Assembly (NCBI RefSeq): GCF_963921235.1
Contig: NC_086108.1
Span: 63,490,001-63,554,000, forward strand
Length of the DNA: 64,000 bases
Reading direction: 5' to 3'
DNA from: Mobula hypostoma
Lineage: Eukaryota
The position numbers were made by a program, and so were the translations under genes. The notes under the pieces were generated by a model. It ran no database searches, was not told the origin of the DNA, and saw only the letters and a program-made list of their open reading frames with translations. Position 1 is the stretch's first letter. Each line of letters opens with the position of its first letter. Shown in pieces: positions 9,646 to 60,262 of the stretch.

Positions 9646-11793
9646 GTAAGTTTATTCTACTTTTTGTTTTGGATATAATGCCATTGGACTGGATTTTGTG
9701 TAATGATGCAAAATAATTTTTTGATATCAGTGGTAAAAACAGACAGCAATTTCTATAAGATATGTGTTGCCATTTGAATATTGCATTCCTGTAGACTTGT
9801 AAGCTCTTCAAATAAACATCCATTTACTATGCAAAACTGATGAGCGTTTCCACCCTAACAAAAGTGTCAGGTAGTACATTACAGATTCCTATTACTCTCT
9901 GGTTAAATAAATTTTCCTCGTATCCCCTCTATTCATTTTACCTTTGAATTTAAATCCATGCTCATTTCTGACTCTGGTACTACATGAAATATATCCTTGT
10001 TATTTAGTCTATCTGAGTTTGCAATTTCAGACAACTCAGTCAATTGTCCCAAACGGAAGAGCAGGAGCATAATAATTTTTGCTCATAGGTGCATATTCTA
10101 GCTTTATTAACTCCTTCATGGGTTACCAGATATCCTCTCGAATGGATACTTTTTGTAGTTAATACTGGTGTGATGGAAAACACCCAGCACAGATCATTAT
10201 GTTTTTAAGGGCAGCAAATATTGATATAACTTTTTGGTTGCAGACCAACTTCTTAATATTAAACACACAGCGTATATTTTCCTTGCCTGAATATAGTGAT
10301 GTCAATTATAAGTCACTTATAAGTCAATAGCATCATAACATTTTAAGTAACGTTTGGATATTAAACACACAGCGCATATTTTCCCTGTATGAACATATAA
10401 AATCATTGCAACACATCAATATCACTGAATCAGTGGGAGCCCTGGGCTTGCTTCCCTGCAACAAGACAGTCCTATCGAGGGGTGATGGGAGACAGCGATA
10501 CTCGAAGGGGGTTCCTTATGTCCAGTCTATTCCGCAATTTAGTTTTCGTTGCATTCATTGCAGAAAACACCGCTTCGCAGAGATATGATGTTGGAAATGG
10601 AAGCAACGTTTTCAGTGCTTTCGTGGCTATCTCAGGATATTCAGCCTTGACTTTGCTCCAGCATACCATCAGAGATGTTATGTCAAATATACTTTTCAGC
10701 CCACTGTCATCTGCAAGCTCGAGGAATTGATCTTCTTCCTGCGCTGACATGGATGATTCACCAGGGACATTCACAAATGGGTCACGGACCCATTCCTTTG
10801 CACGTCTTGGGTCATTTGTCGTTGGGAAGTAACGCTCGAATTCTGTCGACAGCGAGTATAGGTAATCGCGCACCAGCTGTGAGAAGGATGGTGCAGCCTC
10901 AGTCTCTCCCAAAATCCCAGCTAATGTTGGGAACAAGTCAAATATGCCCCTGTCCACTTGCCGTCCCCACAGTTCCAGTTGGTCTTTGAAAGCAGACACT
11001 TTATCTACCAACTTGAAGACAGTTGTCTTTCTCCCCTGAAGTGACAAATTGAGTTCATTGAGCAGGTTGAAGATGTCACACAGACAAGCAAGTGTTGCTA
11101 CCCACTCCTCATCACTGAAGTGTGCTGCCAGTGGTGACTTTTTTTCCTGAAAGAAATCTCTGCAGCTGCTCTCTTAACTCAAAAATCCTTGCCAGGACTC
11201 TTCTCCTTGATAGCCACCTGACCTCAGTGTGCCAGAGAAGGTGTTTGTGCTCTGCATCCATTTCCTCGCAAAACTGCTCAAACAGATGTGAGTTAAGGGC
11301 TTTTGCTTTGATGTGATTGATAACTTCAACAACATCACTCAATATGCTGTGAAGATCAGGTGACATTTTCCGGCTACCCAGCATTTCCCTGTGTATGACA
11401 CAGTGTGTGGACTAGCATTCAAGAGCAACCTCTTTGACTCAGGTAGTGAAACCAGACAGCCGTCCAGTCATAGCTTCAGCCCGTCTGTGCATATTCCAAC
11501 ACAGAATGACCAGCCCAGTTTGCCTGACATGTAGTCATTCAAAGATTTGAATTGCTCTGCGCCAGTTGTGTTAGTTGGCAGCCGCAGTGCACACAACATA
11601 TCCTTGTGCATATTGCCTTGAAATATATATCGCACATAAACCAGCAGTATTGCCTTGTTGTCGACATCGGTAGACTCGTCAAACTGGATAGCATACCATG
11701 GTGACAGTTCCAACAGTTGTGCTTTGATGTCCTCTGCTACGTCATTGATTCTCATTGAAACTTTGGTAGCTGAAATAGAAACTTGTGCCATCT

Positions 11794-13471
11794 AATTCTG
11801 CCTAGCGGAATTAGTCCTTACTCTTAATAATTTCACCTTTGGCTCCTCTCACTTCCTCCAATCTAAAGGTGTAGCCATGGGCACCTGTATGGGTCAGAGC
11901 TATGCCTGCCTTTTTGTTGGCTTTGTGGAACAATCTATGTTCCAAACCTATTCTGGTATCTTTCCCCCACTTTTCCTTCGCTACATCGACGACTGCATTG
12001 GCGCTGCTTCCTACACGCATGCTGAGCTCATTGACTTCATTAACTTTGCCTCCAACTTTCACCCTGCCCTCAAGTTTACCTGGTCCATTTCTGACACCTC
12101 CCTCCCCTTTCTAGATCTTTCTGTCTCTATCTCTGGAGACAGTTTATCTACTGATGTCTACTATAAGCCTACGGACTCTCACAGCTATCTGGACTATTCC
12201 TCTTCTCACCCTGTCTCTTGCAAAAGTGTCATCCCCTTCTCGCAATTCCTCCGTCTCTGCTGCATCTGCTCTCAGAATGAGGCTTTTCATTCCAGGACGA
12301 AGGAGATGTCCTCCTTTTTTAAAGAAAGGGGCTACCCTTCCTCCACCATCAACTCTGCTCTCAAACACATCTCCCCCATTTCACGCACATCTGCTCTCAC
12401 TCCACCCCACTAGGAATAGGGCTCCCCTTGTCCTCACTTACCACCCCACCAGCCTCCGGGTCCAACATCTAATTCTCCGTAACTTCCACCACCTCCAACA
12501 GGATCCCACCACTAAGCAGATTTTTTCATTCCCCCCGACCCACTTTCTGCAGGGATCGCTCCCTACGTGACTCCCTTGTCCATTCGCACCCCCCCCCATC
12601 CCTCCCCACCGATCTCCCTCCTGGCACTTATCCTTGCAAGAAGGACAAGTGCTACACATGCCCTTACACTTCCTCCCTTACCACCATTCAGGGCCCCAGA
12701 CCGTCCTTCCAGGTGAGGTGAGACTTCACCTCTGAGTTGGCTGGGGTGATATACTGTGCCCAGTGCTCCCGATGCGGCCTTCTATATATTGGTGAGACCC
12801 AACGCAGACTGGGAGATCATTTCGCTGAACACCTACGCTCTGTCTGCCAGAGAAAGCAGGATCTCCCAGTGGCCACATATTTTAATTCCACGTCCCATTC
12901 CCATTCTGGTATATTTATCTACGGAATCCTCTACTGTAAAGATGAAGCCACACTCAGGTTGGAGGAACAACAGCTTATATTCTGTCTGGGTAGCCTCCAA
13001 CCTGATGGCATGAACATTGACTTCTCAAAGTTCCGCTAATGCCCCACCTCCCCCTCGTACCCCATCCGTTATTTATTTATTTATATACACACATTCATTT
13101 CTCTCTCTCCTTTTTCTCCCTTTGGCCCTCTCACGAAACCCCTTGCCCATCCTCTGTGCTTCCCCCGCCCCCCGCCCTTTCTTTCTCCCTAGGCCTCCTG
13201 TCCCATGATCCTCTCATATCCCTTTTGCCAATCAACTGTCCAGCTCTCGGCTCCATCCCTCCCCCTCCTGTCTTCTCCTATCATTTTGGATCTCCCCCTC
13301 CCCCTCCCACTTTCAAATCTCTTACTAGCTCTTCCTTCAGTTAGTCCTGACGAAGGGACTAGGCCTGAAACGTCGACTGTACCTCTTCCTAGAGATGCTG
13401 CCTGGTCCACTGCGTCACCAGTAACTTTTATGTGTGTTGCTTGAAATTCCAGCATCTGCAGGTCTCCTCGT
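11794..13471 (+). mobile_element. Penelope-like element, 5'-truncated (RT, GIY-YIG, pLTR with hammerhead)
   Basis: GVAMGT...YACLFVG...RYIDD RT; VIYCAQCSRCGLLYIGET endonuclease; TSD ACTTGTGCCATCT (11781-11793) / ACCTGTGCCATCT (13472-13484). Confidence 0.92.
13343..13378 (+). ncRNA. Minimal type I hammerhead ribozyme motif
   Basis: AGTC-CTGACGA-AGG..CCT-GAAAC-GTC-GACT: stem I AGTC/GACT, intact core, stem II AGG/CCT, GUC cleavage triplet. Confidence 0.8.
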
Positions 13472-15429
13472 ACCTGTGCCATCTTGTTAGCTGCAGCTTC
13501 TCCCAACAGTTCATGGCACATGTCCTTGGCAGCAGGCAGAATCAATTCTTCACCAACAGTGAAAGGCTTCTTAGCCTTAGCAATACGACTAGCCACTCAG
13601 TACGACGCTCTCAGAGCAGCAGCATTTGTGGAGGTGGTGACTCTCAGTACTTGCTTCTGTCCCGCTTGCTCACATTTTTTCCGCTCAAAAGACTCATCGG
13701 GTTTGTCTTTAAGTGCAGGGTGCTTGGACTCAAGGAGCCGAAGCAGTTTTGAGGGCATCATTGCCGCATTAAACAGCTTGTCTCCACATATCACACACAG
13801 GGTGCTTGCGAGTCACGGGTCACATTAAAGCCATATTTTATGTACGACTTGTCGTATTTTCTGTTGGAGGAAGTTTTCTTTTTATTTTGCAGTCTCGGCC
13901 TCAGCTGCCTCTGCGTTATCATCATCGTTAGGCCACTTTCCCATACCTCCTCTTCCAAAGATAATCTCAAGCGACGTTTGTTTTTAATGACCGACCGATA
14001 ACCTCACGGGGATAATGACCTCGCATGTGTTCAAGTTCAACAGTGAACGTAACAGAGAATGAGGAAGGGTGCAACTGACTCATATCATTTCATACCGCCA
14101 AATCAAATCCTTTCCTCATGGCCCGGTAGCTCATGCTTTGCGGCCCAGTGATTGGGGACCACTGATTTATGGAGTCTGAGATCCAGATACCAGGAATCAA
14201 TTTATTTATATAATTTAGCAACTAAAAGTTCCTAGCTGATTTTCTGGGGCCTTCCTCACTCACAACTCTTCACTGCTTTGTTATGTTCAATCTCCTATCA
14301 ACACTTCATACTTCGTTAAAGATTTTAATATATGCCCTGTTAATGCACATAAACTCGCAAATTGAAAAGTGAAGCAATAATCTGAACTATAATCTCGACA
14401 TCAAAACAAATAATTTCGAAACATTCAGCAGTTTTCAGGTTGGGAAAAAGAAACAGCTAATGCTTGAAGACCTTTAGTCAGCAAATAGAAATCCGGTCCT
14501 TGACCTCAATTATTAACTGTGATTTCTTTTCACTGCCAGATTTCCTGAGTACTTCAGCAATATCTGCTTCTGTTTCAGTTTTCAAGAATCTGCAGTTTTT
14601 TATTAGTAGTGTGATCACTCAAGTAAAGTACGATGATCTATAAAAGTTCCCTTTTGGTGGATCCTCAGGTGGCTGTCAGAGGACTGTGGTTCAGTCTGAA
14701 ACGTCGACTGTCCATTTCCCTCCATAGATGCTGTTTGACCCAATGAGTTTACCAAGTTTTTTTTTTGTGTTGCTTCTGCTACAGAACTCCAGGGTCTTAA
14801 CTTACAAAACAGCTCACTTGCCGTGAACATGTGAAAACTCCGTATGGATTCAGGATTGGCAATTCCTCCTCCAGTGAAAGAAAAATCATGTGACGACAAT
14901 TGCAAGGGTAAATGACACAGAAAGCATGTGTCTGGAGCATGGTTAAAGCAAAAAAAAAATCTAATAACCTTTAGAACCTTTCGTAGCAACATGACAGGGA
15001 ACACAAGGAACGACCTTGCCAGTATTAATCAGAATAAACCACAGCAGATCCCCATAGTAAGAAGAATTATACTAAGCAACATGAAGAATGTGCACTGAGT
15101 AGTTGTTGCTGCCATCTGGTGCCTACTTGAGTGATGTCTGAATCACAAACAATTTTAAAGAATGAAGTTTCTTATTCAAACAGTGAATGGGGGAAAACAA
15201 TCAGTGGAATCAGCAGCAATCTACACATCTGTGCAGCATTAGAGGTTTGCTTACATCTGTTTTTGGTCTTTCAAGTGGTAGTTGCTGCGTGTTCAGAAAG
15301 CAAGCTTAGGAAACATAAGATCTCCTGCCCAGGACAATGAATATCCATCACAGCATATAAATATTTTGAAAAAGGCATAAAACTTCTCCGAGGGGCTGCT
15401 TTGTTCAGGTTCTGATGTCACTGTTTCAG

Positions 15430-27827: not shown

Positions 27828-27963
27828 GCTGCTCCTAACTCTAGTTTTGATGACCAAAATCTGCTGTATACATCATTGGATCTTTTCTTTGCTGGATCTG
27901 AGACGACAGCTACCACATTACTTTGGGCACTGCTGTACATGGCAGGGTATCCAGACATTCAAG
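27828..27963 (+). CDS. CYP2-family P450, exon 6 (I helix)
   Basis: tttaag acceptor, 136 bp, DLFFAGSETTATTLLWALLYM..YPDIQ, gtgagt donor. Confidence 0.93.
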
Positions 27964-28974: not shown

Positions 28975-29494
28975 CGAGGGGTGATTGATAAGTTCGTGGC
29001 CTGAGGTAGAAGGAGTCAATTTTAGAAAACCTAGCACATTTATTTCCTACATAGTCCCCTCCTACATTTACACACTTAGTCCAGCAGTTGTGGAGCATAC
29101 GGATCCCTTTGAAGAAGTTGGCGTCTTGGACGTCCAGAAAGTGGTCCACAGTAGGGGTGATTGATAAGTTTATGGCCAATGGTAGAAGGAGATGAGTTAT
29201 ACAGCTCTCCTTATGTGCACGTGCAGTTCAACTCTCTGAGTGATAATGCAGAAAGTTTGAAGTTAATAACTCATCCCCTTCTATCTTAGGCCACAAACTT
29301 ATCAATCACCCCTGCTGTGGACCAGTATCTGGAGGTCCAAGATGCCGACTTCGACAAAGAAGGGATCCGTATGCTCCAGGACCACTGGACTAAGTGTGTA
29401 AATGTAGGAGGGGATTCTGTTGAAAAATAAATATGCCAGGTTTTCTAAAATTGACTCCTTCTACCCTGGGCCACGAACTTATCAATCACCCCTG
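28975..29494. mobile_element. Mariner-derived fold-back MITE
   Basis: TIR GAGGGGTGATTGATAAGTTCGTGGCC at both ends, TA flanks, long inverted arms each encoding a mariner C-terminus (GIRML..WTKCVNVGGD.V.K). Confidence 0.88.
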
Positions 29495-31036: not shown

Positions 31037-32484
31037 TATAGTCTGTCTGGGTAGCCTCCAACCTGATGGTGTGAATTTGCAGGAATTGCACCCACCCTCT
31101 CCTTCACCATTCCCCACTCCTGTTTCTCTCTCTCACCTTTTCTACTTACCTGGCAGTCACCTCCCTCTGGTGCTCCTCCCCTTTCCCTTTCTTCCGTGGT
31201 CTTCTGTCCTCTCCTATCCAATTACCCCTTCTCTAGCGCTTTATCTCTTACACCAATCAACTTCGCAGCTCTTTACTTTGCCCACTCCCCACTGCCAGTT
31301 TCACCTATAACCTACCACCTTGTGCTTCTACCTCCCCCACTTGCTCTGACTTCTCATCTCTTTTTTCCAGTCCTGACGAAGGGTCTCGGCCCAATCATCA
31401 ACTGTTCACCCTTTTCCGTTGATACTGCCTGGCCTATGTGTGTTGCTTGGATTTCCAGCATCAGCAGATTTTCTTGTGTTTTTGGTTTCCGTATCACCTT
31501 CGAGCTTGTACTCCTTCTCCTCACCCCACCGCTTTCCTTTCCAGTTCTGTTGAAGTGCCTCAGCCCCAAAACAGCAGCTCTTTATTCCCCCCCCATAAAT
31601 GCTGCCTGACCTGCTGAGTTCCTTGAGTATTTTGTGTGTGTTACTGTGATCTTGCCTGATTTTAAATTGGTGAACAGTGATGATTTGTACCAAGATACCA
31701 TATGTACTAACATATTGGTGCTGTGAGATATTGATACTTAGAATGATCTAAGAAACATAATTTGGAAAATTAACACTAAAGAAAAATGTTATGAAGAATG
31801 ACCCAATGTTTCAATACTTTTGAGAATAATGAGTGGCCAGATCAATTTGATAGCTATTGTAGTTTCCATTTTGATAATCCTAGCCATCTCATTTACACCA
31901 TGGATATCCAAACTTTCCATATATCCACATGTCCACCTCCTACCAGAACAGACTGCTGACCCTTCACTTCCTGAACGGAGGCAAAACCGGTCCTTATCCT
32001 CCATCATTGCCATTCTCCTGTACCTCATCTTTGTTACACATTGAACAACTCCTCACTATCTCCAAATAAAGGCTGTTGCAATGCAAATCTGAGTAGTTCA
32101 TGAATATAGTTACCTTTTTTGTGGAATACAAGTTTGTTTTTGCTAGCATCTTCCAACCCGTCAGTTTTAACATTCAATGAATCCATTATCTCCTTCATAA
32201 TGCTTCCACTATCCTTTTTATCTTTCCTTTCAAAATTATAATTGTCTCTCTCCCTTCAGGATACCCCAATTCACTTCTCAATCCTTCCTGCTCACAATGC
32301 ATTCACTTCCCACAGCACCTTAATATCCTATTCATTTTATCTCCTTGTTTCCAGCCATTCAGATCTTTTACAAGTGGAATTTTCATTTTCTTGCACTGCA
32401 CTTGCCAGTGTTTTTGTATATATTTTCAATTTAAATGGCTGTGGAGCCTCATTCATTGGGTATATTTAAAGCAGAGGTTGATAG

Positions 32485-38411: not shown

Positions 38412-40600
38412 GCATAGAAGAAGAATTAGGCCATTCAGCCCACTGAGTCTGCTCCACCATTTCATAAAGGCTGATCCCTTTCCCTCTCAACCCCTATTTT
38501 CCTGCCTTTTCCCCAGAACCTTTCACCTCTCACTAATCAAGAACCTATCAACCTCAACCTTAAATGCACTCAGTGACCTGGCCTCCATAGCCACCTGTAG
38601 CAACAAATTCCACACATTCTCCACCCTCTGGCAAAAGAAATTTCACTTTATCTCTGTTCTAAATGGATATCCCTCTAAGTTGAGGCTATGCTCTCTGGTC
38701 ATTGATGCGCCCTACCAAAGGAAACATCCACTTCATATCCACTCTATCTAGGCCTTTCAGCATTTGATAGGTTTCAATGAGATCCCCTCCCCCTCATTCT
38801 TCAAAACTGCGGTGAGCACTGGCCCAGAACCTTCATTCACTGCTCATATGATGACCTGTTCATTCCTGGAATCATTCTCGTGAGCCTCCTCTGAACCTTC
38901 TCCAATGTCAGCACATCCTTTCTTAAATAAGGGACCAAAACTGCTCCCAATACTCCATGAGGTTTCACCAGTGCCTTATACAGCCCCAGCATTACATCTT
39001 TGCTTTTATATTCTAGTCTTCTTGAAATGAATATTAATATTGCATTTGCCTTCCTCACCACCAATTCAACCTACAGACTAACGTTTAGAGAATCCTGTGT
39101 GAGTACTGCCCAATCTGTTTGCACCTCACATTTTTGAATTTTCTCCCCGTTTAGAAAATAGTCTAATAGAAAAGTGTTTGCCTGATCAAACACTTCCTAA
39201 CACTGTATCCATCTGCCACCTCTTTGCCCATTCTCTTAATCTGTCTAAATCCTTCTCAGCCACTCTTCTTCCTCAACCCTACGTGCCCTTCCACCAGTCT
39301 TAGATTTGTCTGCAAACCTGACCACAAAGCCATCAATTTCATCATCTAAATCGTTGACATATTGTACAATGTAAAAAGAAGCAGCTCAATACATACCCCT
39401 TGGAATGCCTCTAGTCGCTGGCAGCCAATCTGAAAAGGATCCTTTTATTCCCACTCTTTGTCTCCTGCCAATCAGCCAATGCTGTATCCATGCTAGTATT
39501 TTTCCTGTGCTCTTATCTTGTTAAGCAGCCTTGGTGCGGCACCTTATCAAAGGCCTTTTGAAAATCCAAGTACACAACATCCACTGATTTTCCTTTGTCT
39601 GTCCTGCTTGTTATTTATTCAATGAATTCCAATGGATTTGTCAGACAAGGTTTTCCCTCAAGGAAATCATGCTGACTTTGGCTTACTTTGTCATGTACCT
39701 CCAAGTACCCCAAAACCACATCCTTAATAATCAACTTCAACATCTTCCCAACCACTGAGGTCTGGCTAACTTGCCTATAAAGTCCTTTGCAACACACACA
39801 AAATACTGGAGGAACTCAGCAGGCCAGGCAGCATCAATGGAAAAGAGTAAACAGCCGACGTTTCAAGCTGAGACCCTTCATCAGTACTGATTTTGTGTGT
39901 GTGTTTGGATTTCCAGCATCTGCTGATTTTCTTGTGTCTATAAATTCCTTTCTTCTGCCTTCATCACTTCTTGAAAGAGTGTAATGACATTTGCAATTTT
40001 CCAGTCCTCTGGAACCATGCCAGAATCTATTGATTCTTGAAAGATCGTCACTAATGCCTCCACAATCTCTTCAGCTACCTCTTTTAGAACCCTTGGGTGT
40101 AGTCCATCAGGGTCCAGGTGGCTTCTCTATCTTTATCTTTCACCATCTCCCTAGGGATAGCAACTGCACTCACTTCTGTCCCTTGATACTGTGAAACTTC
40201 CAGCATACTACTAGTGAAGATTGATGCAAAATACAAATTCAGTTCGTCTGCCATTGGCTGCCAATTAGTTCATTGGCTAGCTTACTTTCATAGTTCATCT
40301 TCTCTCCACCTCCCCCACCCCCCCCCCCACCACCAATGATTTCTTTAGTTGTCTACTGGTCATTTTTTAAAAATTCCCAATCCTTTAACTTTCTGCTAAT
40401 TTTTACTCTATTATATGCCCTCTCTTTCGCTTTGACTTCCCTTATCAGCAACAGTTGTGTTATCCTGCCTTTAGAATACTTTCTCTTCTTTGAAGTGCAT
40501 CTATTCTGTGCCTTCTGAATTGCTCCCGGAAACTCTAGCCATTAAAATTCTGCCATCATCCCTGCAAGTACCCCTTCCAGTCAAGTTTGGCCAGCTCCTC
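38412..40600 (-). mobile_element. CR1 LINE, decayed
   Basis: LEKVQRRLTRMIPG, TSVVGKML..CLTN; interrupted at 39789-39937. Confidence 0.8.
39789..39937. mobile_element. Short PLE-derived element with a minus-strand hammerhead (39853-39888)
   Basis: TSD CTATAAAGTCCTTT (39775-39788) / CTATAAATTCCTTT (39938-39951); reverse complement CTGATGA-AGGGTCTCAGCTT-GAAACGTC. Confidence 0.8.
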
Positions 40601-40834: not shown

Positions 40835-40976
40835 GGCACACAAGTAATTGCAAACCTCTACTCAGTGTTGATGGACAAATCAGAATGGGAAACACCTGAG
40901 GAATTTAATCCTGAACACTTCCTGGACAAAAATGGGAAATTTGTGAGAAAGGAAGCATTTGTCCCTTTCTCTGGAG
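40835..40976 (+). CDS. CYP2-family P450, exon 8
   Basis: cattag acceptor, 142 bp, [47 protein letters not shown], gtaaat donor; not in the ORF track, translated by hand. Confidence 0.95.
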
Positions 40977-42052
40977 GTAAATAGTTTCATTTATGTCACA
41001 GTATATGGCAGAAATTAGTAATTAGTTGAATATTTTAGGAGTGAATGAAAGAAAGAAAGCAGCTTCCTTGCTATTTATTTGGTTCAAGTTACTCGGATTG
41101 TACTGTATATCATGTCCATTTCTGTCGACCTGACAGATTAACCTTTTACATGTGGGTCCTTCAATAGTTTTGATAGAATGGATACTACAATTTGGAGAAT
41201 CTTTTAAAACAATCAAATGAACAGAAGTTCGTAATCTTTATGGGGAAAGTGACTACAAACTTTTAGCTTCTTCATAATGCTATTTTGTACTAATAAATAA
41301 CACAAAAGAAAATCTTCATATTCACCATCATTATTCTGACATTTTTATTTTATCTAGCCAACTATACAGGCAACTTGCATCTCATTTCTGAATATAGTAT
41401 TTATTTTCTAAGATGAGAGCTTGAAAATATTGAGGGAACAGATTATTTTGAAAAAGGATCTAGTGCTTTCCTGGTGTATGTGACAAATAAACTCTTTTTG
41501 GGTTTCCAGGTACAGTTATTGATAATAACTGATATTTCAATGACAGACTCTGCCATCTTCATCAGGGATGATACCTGGGCTTGTCTTGTCCCGTGGTATT
41601 TATGTTGTTTATTAAATAGATTATTTTTGCTAGATCACTTACCAACTTCTTTGGTTTGTTATGATATTATCCAATTGATATAATCCTTCCATGAAGTGTT
41701 CTACATGAATAGTCTTTGGCCTTCTAAGTACCAGATGGTGTTCCAGAAAGTGGAACCATTTCACTTTCCCCAATACCGTGACTGTAATCTGCCTGCTGTG
41801 CTGTTCAAACCACATACCTCCTTCCAATACACTCTGGATATGGTCAGATATGAGCTGCCATTATATATGAAGCATTTGATCATGCTTATTTATCTGTGTT
41901 GTATTAGTTCCTTCAGGATAATGGATACAAATTAGAATGAATGTGTATTAAAAATTAAGTTAAACCAACTTTCAGCACTTGCAGTAAGATACATCCATTT
42001 ATGTTTTTAAATGGTGTTCATAGTGGAAACCAAGCAAATTATTTCTAGGCTC

Positions 42053-42275
42053 ACATCAAAGTTGCTGGTGAACGCAGCAGGCCAGGCAGCATCTCTAGGA
42101 AGAGGTACAGTCGACGTTTCAGGCCGAGACCCTTCGTCCGGACCCTGAGTCCTGACGAAGGGTCTCGGCCTGAAACGTCGACTGTACCTCTTCCTAGAGA
42201 TGCTGCCTGGCCTGCTGCGTTCACCAGCAACTTTGATGTGTGTTGCTTGAATTTCCAGCATCTGCAGAATTCCTG
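42053..42275. mobile_element. PLE-derived fold-back element with hammerheads in both arms
   Basis: Arms 42052-42143 and 42149-42240 are reverse complements with one mismatch; 35-nt unpaired tail; perfect TSD TTATTTCTAGGCTC at 42039-42052 and 42276-42289. Confidence 0.92.
42148..42183 (+). ncRNA. Minimal type I hammerhead ribozyme motif
   Basis: AGTC-CTGACGA-AGGGTCTCGGCCT-GAAAC-GTC-GACT; predicted cleavage after C42179. Confidence 0.82.
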
Positions 42276-42602
42276 TTATTTCTAGGCTCCATTCCTTTCT
42301 AATCTAAGTAATGTATTCTGACGGAATTGCTGATCCAATTGATTCAAATCCAGACTAAGGTCAGCCAATGAAAGAAACTCTTCCCCATTTGTGAAGATAT
42401 TTTCTGAATCTTATTCAGGAACCACTGATTGCAAAGATTATACTTCAGCCCCAAAAATTATGTTATGATTGAGCAGATAAAGAGAAGATTGTGCTGGGTA
42501 TTTATACTCGGGGTGCTTCAATATTTATTCTCGATGCCGGTGAATAGAAAGATTATTTCACATGCCTGTAATTGTATAACGCATATGTCTATTCATTTGC
42601 AG

Positions 42603-42778
42603 GAAAACGCAACTGCATGGGAGAACCACTGGCTAGAATGCAATTGTTCCTTTTCTTCACTTCTTTAATGCAGAAGTTCAAATTTGTTTTTCCCGTGGGT
42701 GTCAAGCCAAGTTTTGATGCTGTAATGCATCTATTATGCAGCCCTCAGCCATACAAGATATGCGCAGTTCCACGCTGA
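42603..42778 (+). CDS. CYP2-family P450, exon 9 (heme Cys, stop)
   Basis: ttgcag acceptor; completes FSGGKRNCMG heme-thiolate motif; ends PQPYKICAVPR-TGA. Confidence 0.96.
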
Positions 42779-44442: not shown

Positions 44443-46033
44443 AACACAAGAAATTCTGCAGATGTGGAAAATCCAAAGCAACGTACACAATGCTGGGAGG
44501 AACTCAGTAGGTCGGGCAGCATCAATGGAAATGAACAAACAATCAACATTTTGGGCTGAGACTCTTCTTCAGGACTGGAAAGGAATGAGGAAGATATTGG
44601 TTGGGGCAGTTTGTTTCTAGAGGTTGAGACAGAAATTGAGAAAGGACAAGGAGATATCAGAAATATATCAGGTGAATTTAAGAGTAGGGTGGAAGCTGAA
44701 GACGAAGTTGGTGAACTTGACGAGCTCAGCACGGGCACATGAAGCAGCCCAAAGCAGGTATCAATGTAGTGGAGGAAGAGTTGGGGAATGTTACCAGGGA
44801 AGGCATGGAACATTGACTGTTCTACATAGCCAATTAAAAAGCAGGCAAAGCTGGGGCCCATGTGGGTGCCCATGGTCACGCCACAAGTCTAGAGAAAATG
44901 GAAGGAGCTGAAGGAGAAATTGTTGAAGGCGAAGACAGTTCTGCCTGATGAAGGAGGGTGGTGATAGAGCGAAACTAGTTGGTCCTTTTATTGACAAAGA
45001 AGCAGAAAGTTTTAAGGCCTTCTTGTTGGGGAATAGAAGTGTATAGGGACTGGACAACCATGGTGAAAATAAGGTGGTCAGGGCAAGAGAATTGAAAGTT
45101 ATTGAGGAGAGCGGGAGCATGAGTAATGTCATGGATGTTGGTGGGAAGGGACTGAACCAAGGAGGATAGAATGGTGTTGAGGTATGAGGACATAAGTTCA
45201 GTGGGGCAGGAGCTTGATGAGATCTGTGATGGTCTTGCAGACAGTTTTCTGATGGTTCTGAGTGGAGTCCTCTTCAAGGGGTAGGCATGAGGAGGTGGCT
45301 GAGGATTTTTGCCAGGCTTCATCAAGATAGAGTTCAGTGTGCCACACTGCAGTGTAACCCCTTTCACTGCAGGTTTGATGGCAAGATTAGGACTGGTGTA
45401 TAGAGAGTGGAGAACAGTGTATTCAGAGGGAGTAAGTTTTGAGGAGGAGAGAGGAGTGCTGAGGTTGAGCCGGCTGATATCTTATTGGCAATTAGAGACT
45501 AAAAGATGCAGTGAAGGCAGGGAACCAATGTGGGGAATCCAAGAAGAGGAGGAGCATCGGAGATGGGAGAAGGGATCATCAGTGCGGGGTGGGAAATTCT
45601 TGCCGATAAAGTGGGCTTGGAGATGGAGGTGATGGAAAAACAGCTTGGTGTTGGTGTGAGCAAAGGGGGACAAAGTCAAGGCCTTTGCTGAGGTCATCTC
45701 AGAGAAGGAAATGGTGAAGGCACAGCAGAGATTAGATCTGGCATGAGAATTGGAGGTGTCATTGGAGAAGGGAATTTTGTGTTCAGGGAAGGTAGGGTGG
45801 GACGAAGATGGTGGCTCCGAGGACCCAAGAAGTGACCTTGGATCCTGAGGGACCTGGAATTGGAGGGTGGTGGTGGTGGTGGGGGAAGGGGAGACGGGAG
45901 GCCCAGCAGCAGCGAGGTAGGTTGAGGCTGGAGCAAGATCTAAACACTGCACGTTTTGCAGTCTGATAGCGTCTAGGGTCACAGGAACCAGCATTGGTGA
46001 TGAGAGAATCTGAGGTCTGGATCCCCTTCGATC
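44443..46033 (-). mobile_element. PLE with internal deletions
   Basis: MGTHMGPSFACFLIGYVEQ..HYID and V.SLYTSIP RT motifs; pLTR at left; degenerate TSD CAGTACAGTTGCTA (44429-44442) / CAGTACAATCGGTA (46034-46047). Confidence 0.78.
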
Positions 46034-57882: not shown

Positions 57883-60042
57883 TTAATGGTAAGACTCTCG
57901 GCAGTGTGGAGGATCAGAGGGATCTTGGGGTCTGAGTCCATAGGACACTCAAATCCGCTGCGCAGTTTGATTCTGTGGTTAAGAAGGCATACAGTGCATT
58001 AGCCTTCATCAATCATGGGATTGAGTTTAGGAGCTGAGAGGTAATGTTGCAGCTATATAGGACCCTGGTCAGACCCCACTTGGAGTACTGTGCTCAGTTC
58101 TGGTCACCTCACCACAGGAAGATTGTGGAAACCATAGAACGGGTGCAGAGGAGATTTACAAGGATGTTGCCTAGATTGGGGGGCATCCCTTATGAGAAGA
58201 GGTTGAGTGAACTCGGCCTTGTCTCCTTGGAGCAACAGAGGGTGAGAGGTGGCGTGACAGAATTGCATAAGATAATGAGAAGCATTGATCGTGTGGATAG
58301 TCAGAGGCTTTCTCGCAGGGCGGAAATGGCTAACATGAGAGGGCACAGTTTTAAGGTGCTTGAAAGTGGGTACACCGGAGAGGTCATGGGTAAGTTTTTT
58401 ACGCAGAGAGTGCTGGGCTGCCAGCGATGGTGGTGGAGGTGGACATGATAGGGTATTTTAAGAGACGCCTGGACAGGTAGATGGAGCTGAGAAAAATAGA
58501 GGGCTAGAGGTAGTCCTAGGTAATTTCTAAGGTAAGGCCATATTCGGCACAGTTTTGTGGGCCGAAGGGCCTGTATTGTGCTGTAAGTTTTCTATGTTTT
58601 CTGAGAGTACCTGGTTGTACACTAATTTGGTCATTTCCAGGAGGGTTCCCCATTCTGACCAGGCCCACAATGCCACTAACCCAGTACACAAATGTTAGCT
58701 AGAAAACAGATAGGGAGCATACTCTGATTAGTGATAGTCAGCATGGCTTTGTGAGGGGTAGGCCATTCCTCATGAGCCTTATTGAATTCTTTGAGGAAGT
58801 GACAAGACAAATCGATGAAGTGGTACCTTTGGGATTTTAGGAAGGCATTTGACAAGGTTCCCCATGGTAGGCTCATTCAGAAAGTCAGGAGGAATGGGGT
58901 CCAAGGAAACTTGGCTGTGTGCATTCTGAATTGGTTGCCCACATAAGGCAGAAGGATATAAATGAAGAATATTCTACTTGGAGGTCGGTGACGAGTGATG
59001 TTCCGCAGGGATCTGTTCTTGGATCTTTGTGATTCTTCTAAATGATTTGAATGAGGAAGTGGAAGGATGGGTTAGCAAATTTGCAATCGACACAAAGGTT
59101 AGTGGAATAGGGAATAGTGTAGAAAGTTGTTTTAGGCTGCAGTGGAACCTTGATTAGGAAGCTGGGCTGTGCTGAAAAGTGACAGATGAACTTCAATCTG
59201 GAAAAATTGTGAAGCGATACCCTTTGGAAGTTCAAACTTGAAGGCAAAACAATGTTAATGGCAGAATTCCTGGCACTGTGGAGGAACAGAGGGATCTTGA
59301 GATTCCATAAAACTGCCATGCAAGTTGATAGGGAGTTAAGAATGTGTATGGTGTATTGGCTTTCATAAGCCGTCCAGATGTACCCAGCGAACTGCAGTGC
59401 CCAGCAGCCCACCTAGCCCACACAAGCCTAATCACAGGACTATTTACAATGTCCAATTAACCTATTAACTGGTATGTTTTTGAATTGTGGGAGGAAACCA
59501 GGCAGACTCGCTGGGTCAAATGGCCTAATTCTGCTCCTATATCTTATGATCATCCAAAGGATTCACCCACATGATTCAGAAGGAGAATGTACAACTGCTT
59601 ACAGATGGCACCAGAATTGATCTCCAAACTCTGGAACACTCCAAGCTACAACAACATCACCCTAACCTCTAAGCTACTGTTGTGCCAATTAGGTCCTGCG
59701 CTGTGGTTATAAAAATATAGTTTCATTAACATCAGAAGATATACTTTTAAACTACTGAAGAATTCTTGACGAATAAAATTTCATTGCACATTGATGTAAT
59801 TAGTTGTTGGGAAACAAATTTTCACATCAACCCAAGTAGAAAAATTTGGCACAGAATTAACATTGAGAAAACTAAAATCCTATTTAAAATGTAAAAAATT
59901 GCAGAGCCATAATTTTTTGATTTTTTTTCTTTATATAAGTTCCATAGAATTCTAAAAATCTTTTAATTGTAGTTACGAGGTTGAAACCTTTAACAATTAT
60001 GATCAGTTAGGCAAACAGAGAACCTATATTTACTGACAGGTA

Positions 60043-60262
60043 AACAACAGGAATTCTGCAGATGCTGGAAATTCAAGCAACACAAATCAAAGTTGCTGGT
60101 GAACGCAGCAGGCCAGGCAGCATCTCTTGGAAGAGGTACAGTCGATGTTTCAGGCCGAGACCATTCGTTAGTCCTGACGAAGGGTCTTGGCCTGAAACGT
60201 CGACTGTACCTCTTCCTAGAGATGCTGCCTGGCCTGCTGCGTTCACCAGCAACTTTGATGTG
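60043..60262. mobile_element. PLE-derived fold-back element, opposite orientation to the 42-kb copy
   Basis: Same arms as 42053-42275 with the tail on the left; perfect TSD TTTACTGACAGGTA at 60029-60042 and 60263-60276. Confidence 0.92.
60170..60205 (+). ncRNA. Minimal type I hammerhead ribozyme motif
   Basis: AGTC-CTGACGA-AGGGTCTTGGCCT-GAAAC-GTC-GACT. Confidence 0.8.

Follow-up and report, generated by a model that had tools for sequence, protein, structure and literature searches.

The palindromic insert near 42 kb of the analysed DNA (the 42k hairpin) is probably a single, dead-on-arrival insertion of a Penelope-like element (PLE), in which two ends of the element lie head-to-head between 14-bp TSDs. 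The two arms consist of pLTR sequence, and a 35-nt tail is attached to just one of them. The hairpin is thus likely to be a one-off product of a known PLE insertion pattern, and not a new self-copying RNA element.

Architecture, origin and age of the insert

A repeat search of the window, i.e., the whole stretch of 64,000 nucleotides that was analysed, found a 223-bp insert at 42053-42275, bounded by a perfect direct repeat (14 of 14 bp). The probability of such a 14-bp TSD by chance is about 4e-6, when a 14-mer match is allowed within +/-10 nt at both insert ends. Its host is a cytochrome P450 gene, in whose last intron it lies on the sense strand, 313 nt upstream of the intron acceptor. The features of the locus are as follows:

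40835-40976, 42603-42778 and near 27891, + strand: P450 exons, spliced in run X5
40977-42602, + strand: host intron, the last of the P450 gene, with the insert in sense orientation; a spliced X5 contig joins 40976 to 42603
42039-42052, no strand: left TSD, TTATTTCTAGGCTC, 14 bp; its terminal C also pairs with the arm end
42053-42143, - strand: inverted, tail-less pLTR arm; a hammerhead motif with a broken core (CGGACGA) adjoins the turn; no descriptor match
42144-42147, no strand: junction filler CCTG; the loop is 42144-42148, A42148 already matching the pLTR
42148-42240, + strand: sense pLTR arm, from the alignment to other copies
42148-42183, + strand: minimal type-I hammerhead motif, with stem I 42148-51/42180-83, core CTGACGA, stem II 42160-63/42168-71, and GAAAC-GTC
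42241-42275, + strand: PLE tail, 35 nt, on one side only, from the sequence and the copy alignment
42276-42289, no strand: right TSD, TTATTTCTAGGCTC; contig loose ends lie behind 42281

The inverted repeat, 42052-42143 / 42149-42240, is 92 nt long, with a 5-nt loop and a single mismatch between the arms. Because the final base of the left TSD supplies one side of its 92nd pair, the left arm inside the insert is just 91 nt, and the insert is composed of 91 + 5 + 92 + 35 nt. At the opposite end, the TT that opens the right TSD is an extension of the family tail, to judge from the alignment with the copy near 60 kb (the 60k copy). Hence, there is microhomology of 1-2 nt at both ends of the insertion. 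The insert, TSD, inverted repeat with one mismatch and 5-nt loop, and 35-nt tail given by a sequence-only reading of this DNA were all confirmed. Alignment with other copies also shows that the pLTR sequence upstream of the hammerhead is absent from the insert.

In a BLAST search within the window, the right arm and tail matched 13343-13461, with 92.5% identity over 120 nt. This region is the end of a larger element:

11794-13474, + strand: broken, 5'-truncated PLE relic, with an RT part, a CX4CxxC linker, a GIY-YIG/CCHH endonuclease, a pLTR with hammerhead and tail, and a 10-bp TSD

The sequence-only reading had matched the arm to the 3' end of a coding PLE. The match is borne out, but the element can hardly be called coding, as its endonuclease frame is interrupted by stops and frameshifts. 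The Pfam GIY-YIG match in the relic has an E-value of 0.0033, below the curated cut-off, and Pfam returned no family for any of the three proteins searched, namely the PLE RT piece, a second PLE piece and a DNA-transposon piece. The RT-like frame presumably encodes RT, to judge by motifs that we recognised. The linker, CKKDKCYTC, fits the CX2-5CxxC motif, which in the RT-EN linker is described as marking the Neptune and Nematis clades of PLEs (PMC8557442). Judged by sequence, the source family is thus a putative Neptune/Nematis-type PLE, and an abundant one; the linker motif alone does not separate the two clades. The relic itself is a dead relative of the 42k insert and not its active source.

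Several other features surround these relics. The 5' junction of the relic (11793-11813) opens with a small imperfect hairpin, with a stem of ~9 bp and a loop of 3 nt. It departs from other relics in the first 3-4 bases and is possibly a very small fold-back. The PLE insertion at 11794-13474 splits a minus-strand DNA transposon relic, 10410-13960, which we take to be hAT-like and which gave no Pfam match. Inside another PLE relic there is a nested inverted-repeat element of ~520 bp, 28977-29493, with repeated AGGGGTGATTGATAAGTT ends, which resembles a DNA-transposon MITE.

The exon downstream of the host intron encodes the P450 C-terminus (Pfam p450, E 7.5e-12), and from its motifs we assume that the gene is CYP2-like. 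In organisms B and C, a long contig departs exactly at the start of the TSD and continues with 660 and 661 unlike letters, respectively; the insertion site therefore appears to be empty in both. In X1, the flank contig has an overhang of 16 unlike letters, the length that 31-letter words and a 14-bp TSD should produce where an empty and a filled site coexist. The depth of this contig is 32, about 3 times the median, and thus a recent duplicate of the locus is an alternative to an empty allele; either way, a second allele or a duplicate without the insert is probably present in the same organism. With the site seemingly empty in two relatives, and probably so in a second allele or duplicate, the insertion is young. 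The same observations bear on the possibility of an assembly or library artefact, i.e., a fold-back chimera. Palindromic chimeras are a known sequencing artefact, but a chimera would account neither for the perfect 14-bp TSD and the junction filler, nor for three elements with TSDs of their own, nor for orthologous sites that are apparently empty and junctions that are common to different runs and organisms. We regard an artefact as extremely improbable.

The hammerhead motif and its predicted folding

A descriptor of the minimal hammerhead gave five matches in the window (13343+, 42148+, 60170+, 39888- and 23577-), compared with a mean of 0.02 in 50 shuffled sequences. The match at 42148-42183 confirms an intact minimal hammerhead on the + strand of the right arm, whose predicted cut is after C42179. 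More generally, the descriptor matches and the copy alignment support the earlier view that minimal hammerheads are carried by PLE pLTRs and that the insert is an inverted pLTR plus a tail. That the left arm carries the motif on the - strand with one core change is less clear. The variant CGGACGA is indeed seen, but it is located 4 nt from the turn and can be either a substitution or the edge of the junction, i.e., an arm truncated at GACGA followed by filler. An Rfam search with the element gave 12 matches up to E 10, all below the gathering score; hammerhead families were absent from them, and the top matches were generic models of miRNA hairpins.

The whole element is predicted to fold at -199.5 kcal/mol, with a z-score of -27.7 relative to 200 shuffled sequences; the overall fold of the minus strand is -201.0. 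For the 36-nt motif alone, the predicted probability of the hammerhead stems is 0.65-0.96. In the context of the whole element, on the + strand, the predicted value is 0.0, and it is also 0.0 for a prefix that ends at the last base of the motif. Forcing the hammerhead stems to form within the element is predicted to cost 54.5 kcal/mol. Because the layout is head-to-head, the antisense arm is transcribed first in either direction, and thus the ribozyme is predicted to be buried in the hairpin in either polarity, the minus strand being argued by symmetry. The proposal that the element is ribozyme-active in either polarity is therefore not upheld: the + strand stems have a predicted probability of 0.0 in the hairpin, and the antisense arm is made first. 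Any transcript of the insert would form a 92-bp hairpin that hides the ribozyme; the hammerhead motif would thus be a passenger. The ribozyme of a lizard PLE, from Anolis, is reported to require the help of protein (PMC11167929).

Centre junctions in the window and in public contigs

BLAST of the element within the window gave 15 rows, the self-match included, and two of these rows are further fold-backs:

60043-60262, - strand: second fold-back, of the same subfamily, 220 bp; 14-bp TSD at 60029-42 / 60263-76; intact hammerhead on the tail-less arm only
39789-39937, + strand: third fold-back (the 39.8k copy), of an older subfamily; a full inverted arm, then little beyond the tail; TSD 13/14

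The centre junctions of the three fold-backs are all different. At the centre of the 60k copy, the tail-less arm extends 3 nt upstream of stem I and the tail-bearing arm begins 7 nt inside stem I, with 2-nt microhomology. The tail-less arm has the longer 5' reach in the 60k and 39.8k copies, and the tail-bearing arm in the 42k copy; the base at which the tail-less arm stops is identical between the 42k and 60k copies. All three nonetheless share a stop at the hammerhead's 5' edge, ~30 nt short of the cut site, in at least one of their arms. The ribozyme cleavage site was rejected as the turn for these copies, as the turn is ~30 nt upstream of the cut. Pattern scans for copies elsewhere gave no match in viral contigs, one in prokaryote genomes and one in metagenomes; the last two are both one bacterial coding sequence, and were discarded as chance.

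Contigs from 4 of 23 sequencing runs were aligned to 42108-42700, a stretch that runs from the last 36 nt of the left arm through the centre, right arm and tail into the flank. The junctions visible in this way are those in which the inverted arm ends within 36 nt of the 42k centre, and some events go uncounted; the figures given here rest on the best 15 of 142 joints. Among these 15, there are at least 14 further distinct arm-to-arm junctions, whose sense arm begins at +17 to +96 (with stem I as +1). Measured against the median for long single-locus pieces, the 14 junctions have X1 depths of 0.7-11.4 times that value; several recur, at about 3-11 times single-locus depth, and 6 of the 14 were found in both organisms A and B. 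Microhomology at the 14 junctions averages 2.1 nt when counted on the reference, or 1.7 nt by X1 contig column, against 0.73 nt over 960 possible pairs. The enrichment has a P value of 1e-5 by the reference count and 7e-4 by the X1 column, and is biased upward since the joints listed are the best-supported ones.

All three organisms have the family in very high numbers, with a rough lower bound of ~3e4 arms each in X1 and X9, depth not being the same as copy number. One visible form of the junction is far commoner than the others, but its share of arm depth is just ~0.09-0.12% in X1, 0.04-0.07% in X9 and 0.003% in X13. A dominant junction clipped at 42148 could be concealed among the loose ends; the best-supported 5' loose ends in three DNA-like runs are at 42148-42150, with an agreement of only 0.32-0.41, and they combine genuine 5' ends with copies that run on, since the match of the aligned stretch to the pLTR ends at that point. 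The commonest form is recognised by two paired changes, 42147 G>T and 42148 A>C, present in 26-48 X1 contigs. Simulation shows that this pair is expected from a junction that is 13 nt shorter, with GTC microhomology.

These results weigh on the idea of a replicating, non-autonomous fold-back family, in which a master hairpin would be transcribed, possibly processed by the ribozyme, and re-copied in trans by PLE enzymes. The great abundance of arms would suit such a family, as would the resemblance between the 42k and 60k copies in size (223 and 220 bp), arm ends and TSD length, and the mobilisation of cargo in trans by pLTRs alone has been described (PMC3846280). The recurrence of the commonest form, with 42147 G>T and 42148 A>C, could also be read as copying, but this form accounts for only the small fractions of arm depth given above, and its 3-4-nt microhomology would favour independent recurrence. 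Furthermore, no two centres in the window agree, the pLTR sequence upstream of the hammerhead is missing, the ribozyme is predicted to be buried, and there are no tandem units. We therefore consider a replicating family improbable. With three of three window centres different and at least 14 more junctions in the contigs, centres are largely unique, and the replicating, retrozyme-like family of the sequence-only reading is largely contradicted. On the same two counts, we rejected a SINE-like replicating family with one shared centre junction. Limited re-copying of a subset of the recurring junction forms may nevertheless occur. It is likewise doubtful that a subset, e.g., the recurring junction form found in three organisms, is a true palindromic parasite of PLEs, whose dsRNA hairpin is re-copied in trans from the tail start site with no need of the ribozyme. 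Replication of such a subset in hairpin form would make it a non-autonomous retroelement of a new type, although the evidence for this is weak.

Proposed priming and joining, and relation to known elements

Within the class of one-off PLE insertions, we lean towards double priming as the route. The PLE RT/endonuclease would prime two short cDNAs, from both nicks of a target cut staggered by 14 nt. One nick would be primed at the end of the tail and the other at a tail-less site, giving rise to the tail asymmetry. Both cDNAs would stop near the 5' edge of the hammerhead, and their ends would then be joined via microhomology or a few filler bases. Two primings are needed for those copies whose tail-less arm is longer, which a single tail-primed fold-back would not give; the 42k junction by itself fits the snap-back of a single cDNA equally well. 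In support of the individual steps, the protein of a lizard PLE is reported to nick and extend both target strands, to initiate reverse transcription internally, at two RNA positions flanking the tail, and to insert independently of ribozyme cleavage (PMC11167929). The lizard start site is AC-rich in the RNA, however, whereas the sense-strand ends here are GT-rich, and the lizard data are for a Poseidon-clade element in vitro (PMC11167929).

Candidates for what would stop the arms are the 5' end of the RNA, a block resembling a 3' splice site, and stalling of the RT at a folded or protein-bound ribozyme. In longer pLTR copies, a pyrimidine run ending in CAG is found directly upstream of stem I (13320-13346, 31350-31372, and 44575-44595 on the minus strand), i.e., in 3 of the 4 aligned rows that have genomic letters upstream of stem I. 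When set beside the initiator consensus, this run resembles both a 3' splice site and an initiator, a likeness in sequence that coincides with the arm stop. For the Penelope element of D. virilis, an intron end is mapped to the 5' end of helix I (PMC4209133), and the promoter is located in the pLTR (PMC2377424). We also considered whether an additional G that precedes the sense arm, at 42147 and likewise in a single X9 joint, could be a copied RNA cap; other listed joints show C or T, and it is only a lead.

A different route to the same class of product is self-priming, in which one cDNA (or an antisense RNA) folds back and copies itself; it would replace the priming and joining steps, and not the class. 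Self-priming on an antisense template has been proposed for head-to-head palindromic junctions in rotifer PLEs (PMC3846280), and two features of the window accord with it, namely that the furthest 5' reach in the 42k copy belongs to the tail-bearing arm, and that there is a very small, imperfect hairpin where the truncated PLE begins, at its 5' junction near 11794. A tail-less arm could not be the longer one in such products, however, and yet it is so in the 60k and 39.8k copies and in the joint 42132>42243, nor could the tail be copied from a tail-less arm. Moreover, a fixed second priming site would give the common end point of the tail-less arm that is seen in the 42k and 60k copies. Self-priming is thus a possibility to which we assign clearly the lesser weight, and double priming is our preferred reading.

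As to class, insertions of PLEs are described as often bearing an inverted 5'-truncated copy and a one-sided tail of 30-40 bp (Craig et al. 2021, PMC8557442; Arkhipova et al. 2013, PMC3846280), structures whose origin is presented as an open question (PMC8557442). The 42k insert has the features of an insertion by an EN+ PLE: pLTR sequence, an inverted 5'-truncated copy, a 35-nt one-sided tail, a TSD, an apparent empty site and a pLTR hammerhead. From this geometry, we infer that the insertion was made by PLE RT/EN in cells; mobilisation by the PLE machinery, as proposed in the sequence-only reading, is thus supported by the geometry and the TSD. The complex insertion units of EN+ PLEs share with it the head-to-head arrangement of inverted 5'-truncated and sense copies, the one-sided tail, the TSD and the pLTR hammerhead (PMC8557442, PMC3846280), and the inverted terminal repeats of the D. 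virilis PLE also count among the closest known geometries (PMC2377424). In contrast with the published units, whose examples are drawn with ORFs or longer pLTRs, both copies are here cut to ~92 nt and there is no ORF.

The hammerhead is of the kind described for metazoan PLEs, i.e., type-I without helix III, with an extra base before stem II, and dispersed in large numbers (Cervera and De la Pena 2014, PMC4209133); in the parts of this survey considered here, cartilaginous fish are not named. Pairs of minimal hammerheads on opposite strands, 100-700 bp apart, are described in Schistosoma (PMC4209133). By comparison, the pair in the 42k hairpin is closer, one core is broken, and both motifs are locked in a single hairpin. 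The Poseidon element of Anolis carolinensis has in common, in vitro, the nicking and extension of both strands and the two RT starts bounding the tail (Frangieh et al. 2024, PMC11167929). It belongs to another clade, and fold-back products or the joining of two cDNAs do not feature in the parts of that account considered. In the literature outside Repbase and Dfam, we found no account of a family with exactly this minimal structure in cartilaginous fish, although the supplements of PMC4209133 and PMC11167929 may show short forms.

Metazoan non-LTR retrozymes resemble the insert in being non-coding, pLTR-related and on the scale of 150-300 nt, with a type-I hammerhead, but they are described as head-to-tail tandem units that the ribozyme cuts into monomers and circles (PMC7761336; bioRxiv 10.64898/2026.07.22.740005). 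This assignment was rejected, since the unit here is a lone head-to-head one. Boundaries set by retrozyme cleavage were rejected too, as the turn is ~30 nt upstream of the cut at 42179 and the ends are ~60 and 96 nt downstream. A MITE does not fit either: the 35-nt tail is located outside the inverted repeat, and the sequence is that of a retroelement pLTR. In the twin priming of L1, a second priming from the other nick yields an inverted 5' part that is joined by microhomology. The two L1 parts derive from separate regions of the RNA, whereas here a single stretch is copied into both arms, and the product is therefore a palindrome.

Taken as a single insert, the 42k hairpin is ordinary. A genome with tens of thousands of such arms is, on the other hand, a natural record, in which the reach of the arms, their stop points and their joins could separate double priming from self-priming. 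Young, near-perfect intronic hairpins of 92 bp would also be substrates for RNA editing or silencing. Lastly, the TSDs are 14 bp for all three fold-backs of the window (42039-42052, 60029-60042 and 39775-39788), compared with 10 bp in the longer truncated PLE; a fixed 14-bp stagger may accompany double priming (n=3).
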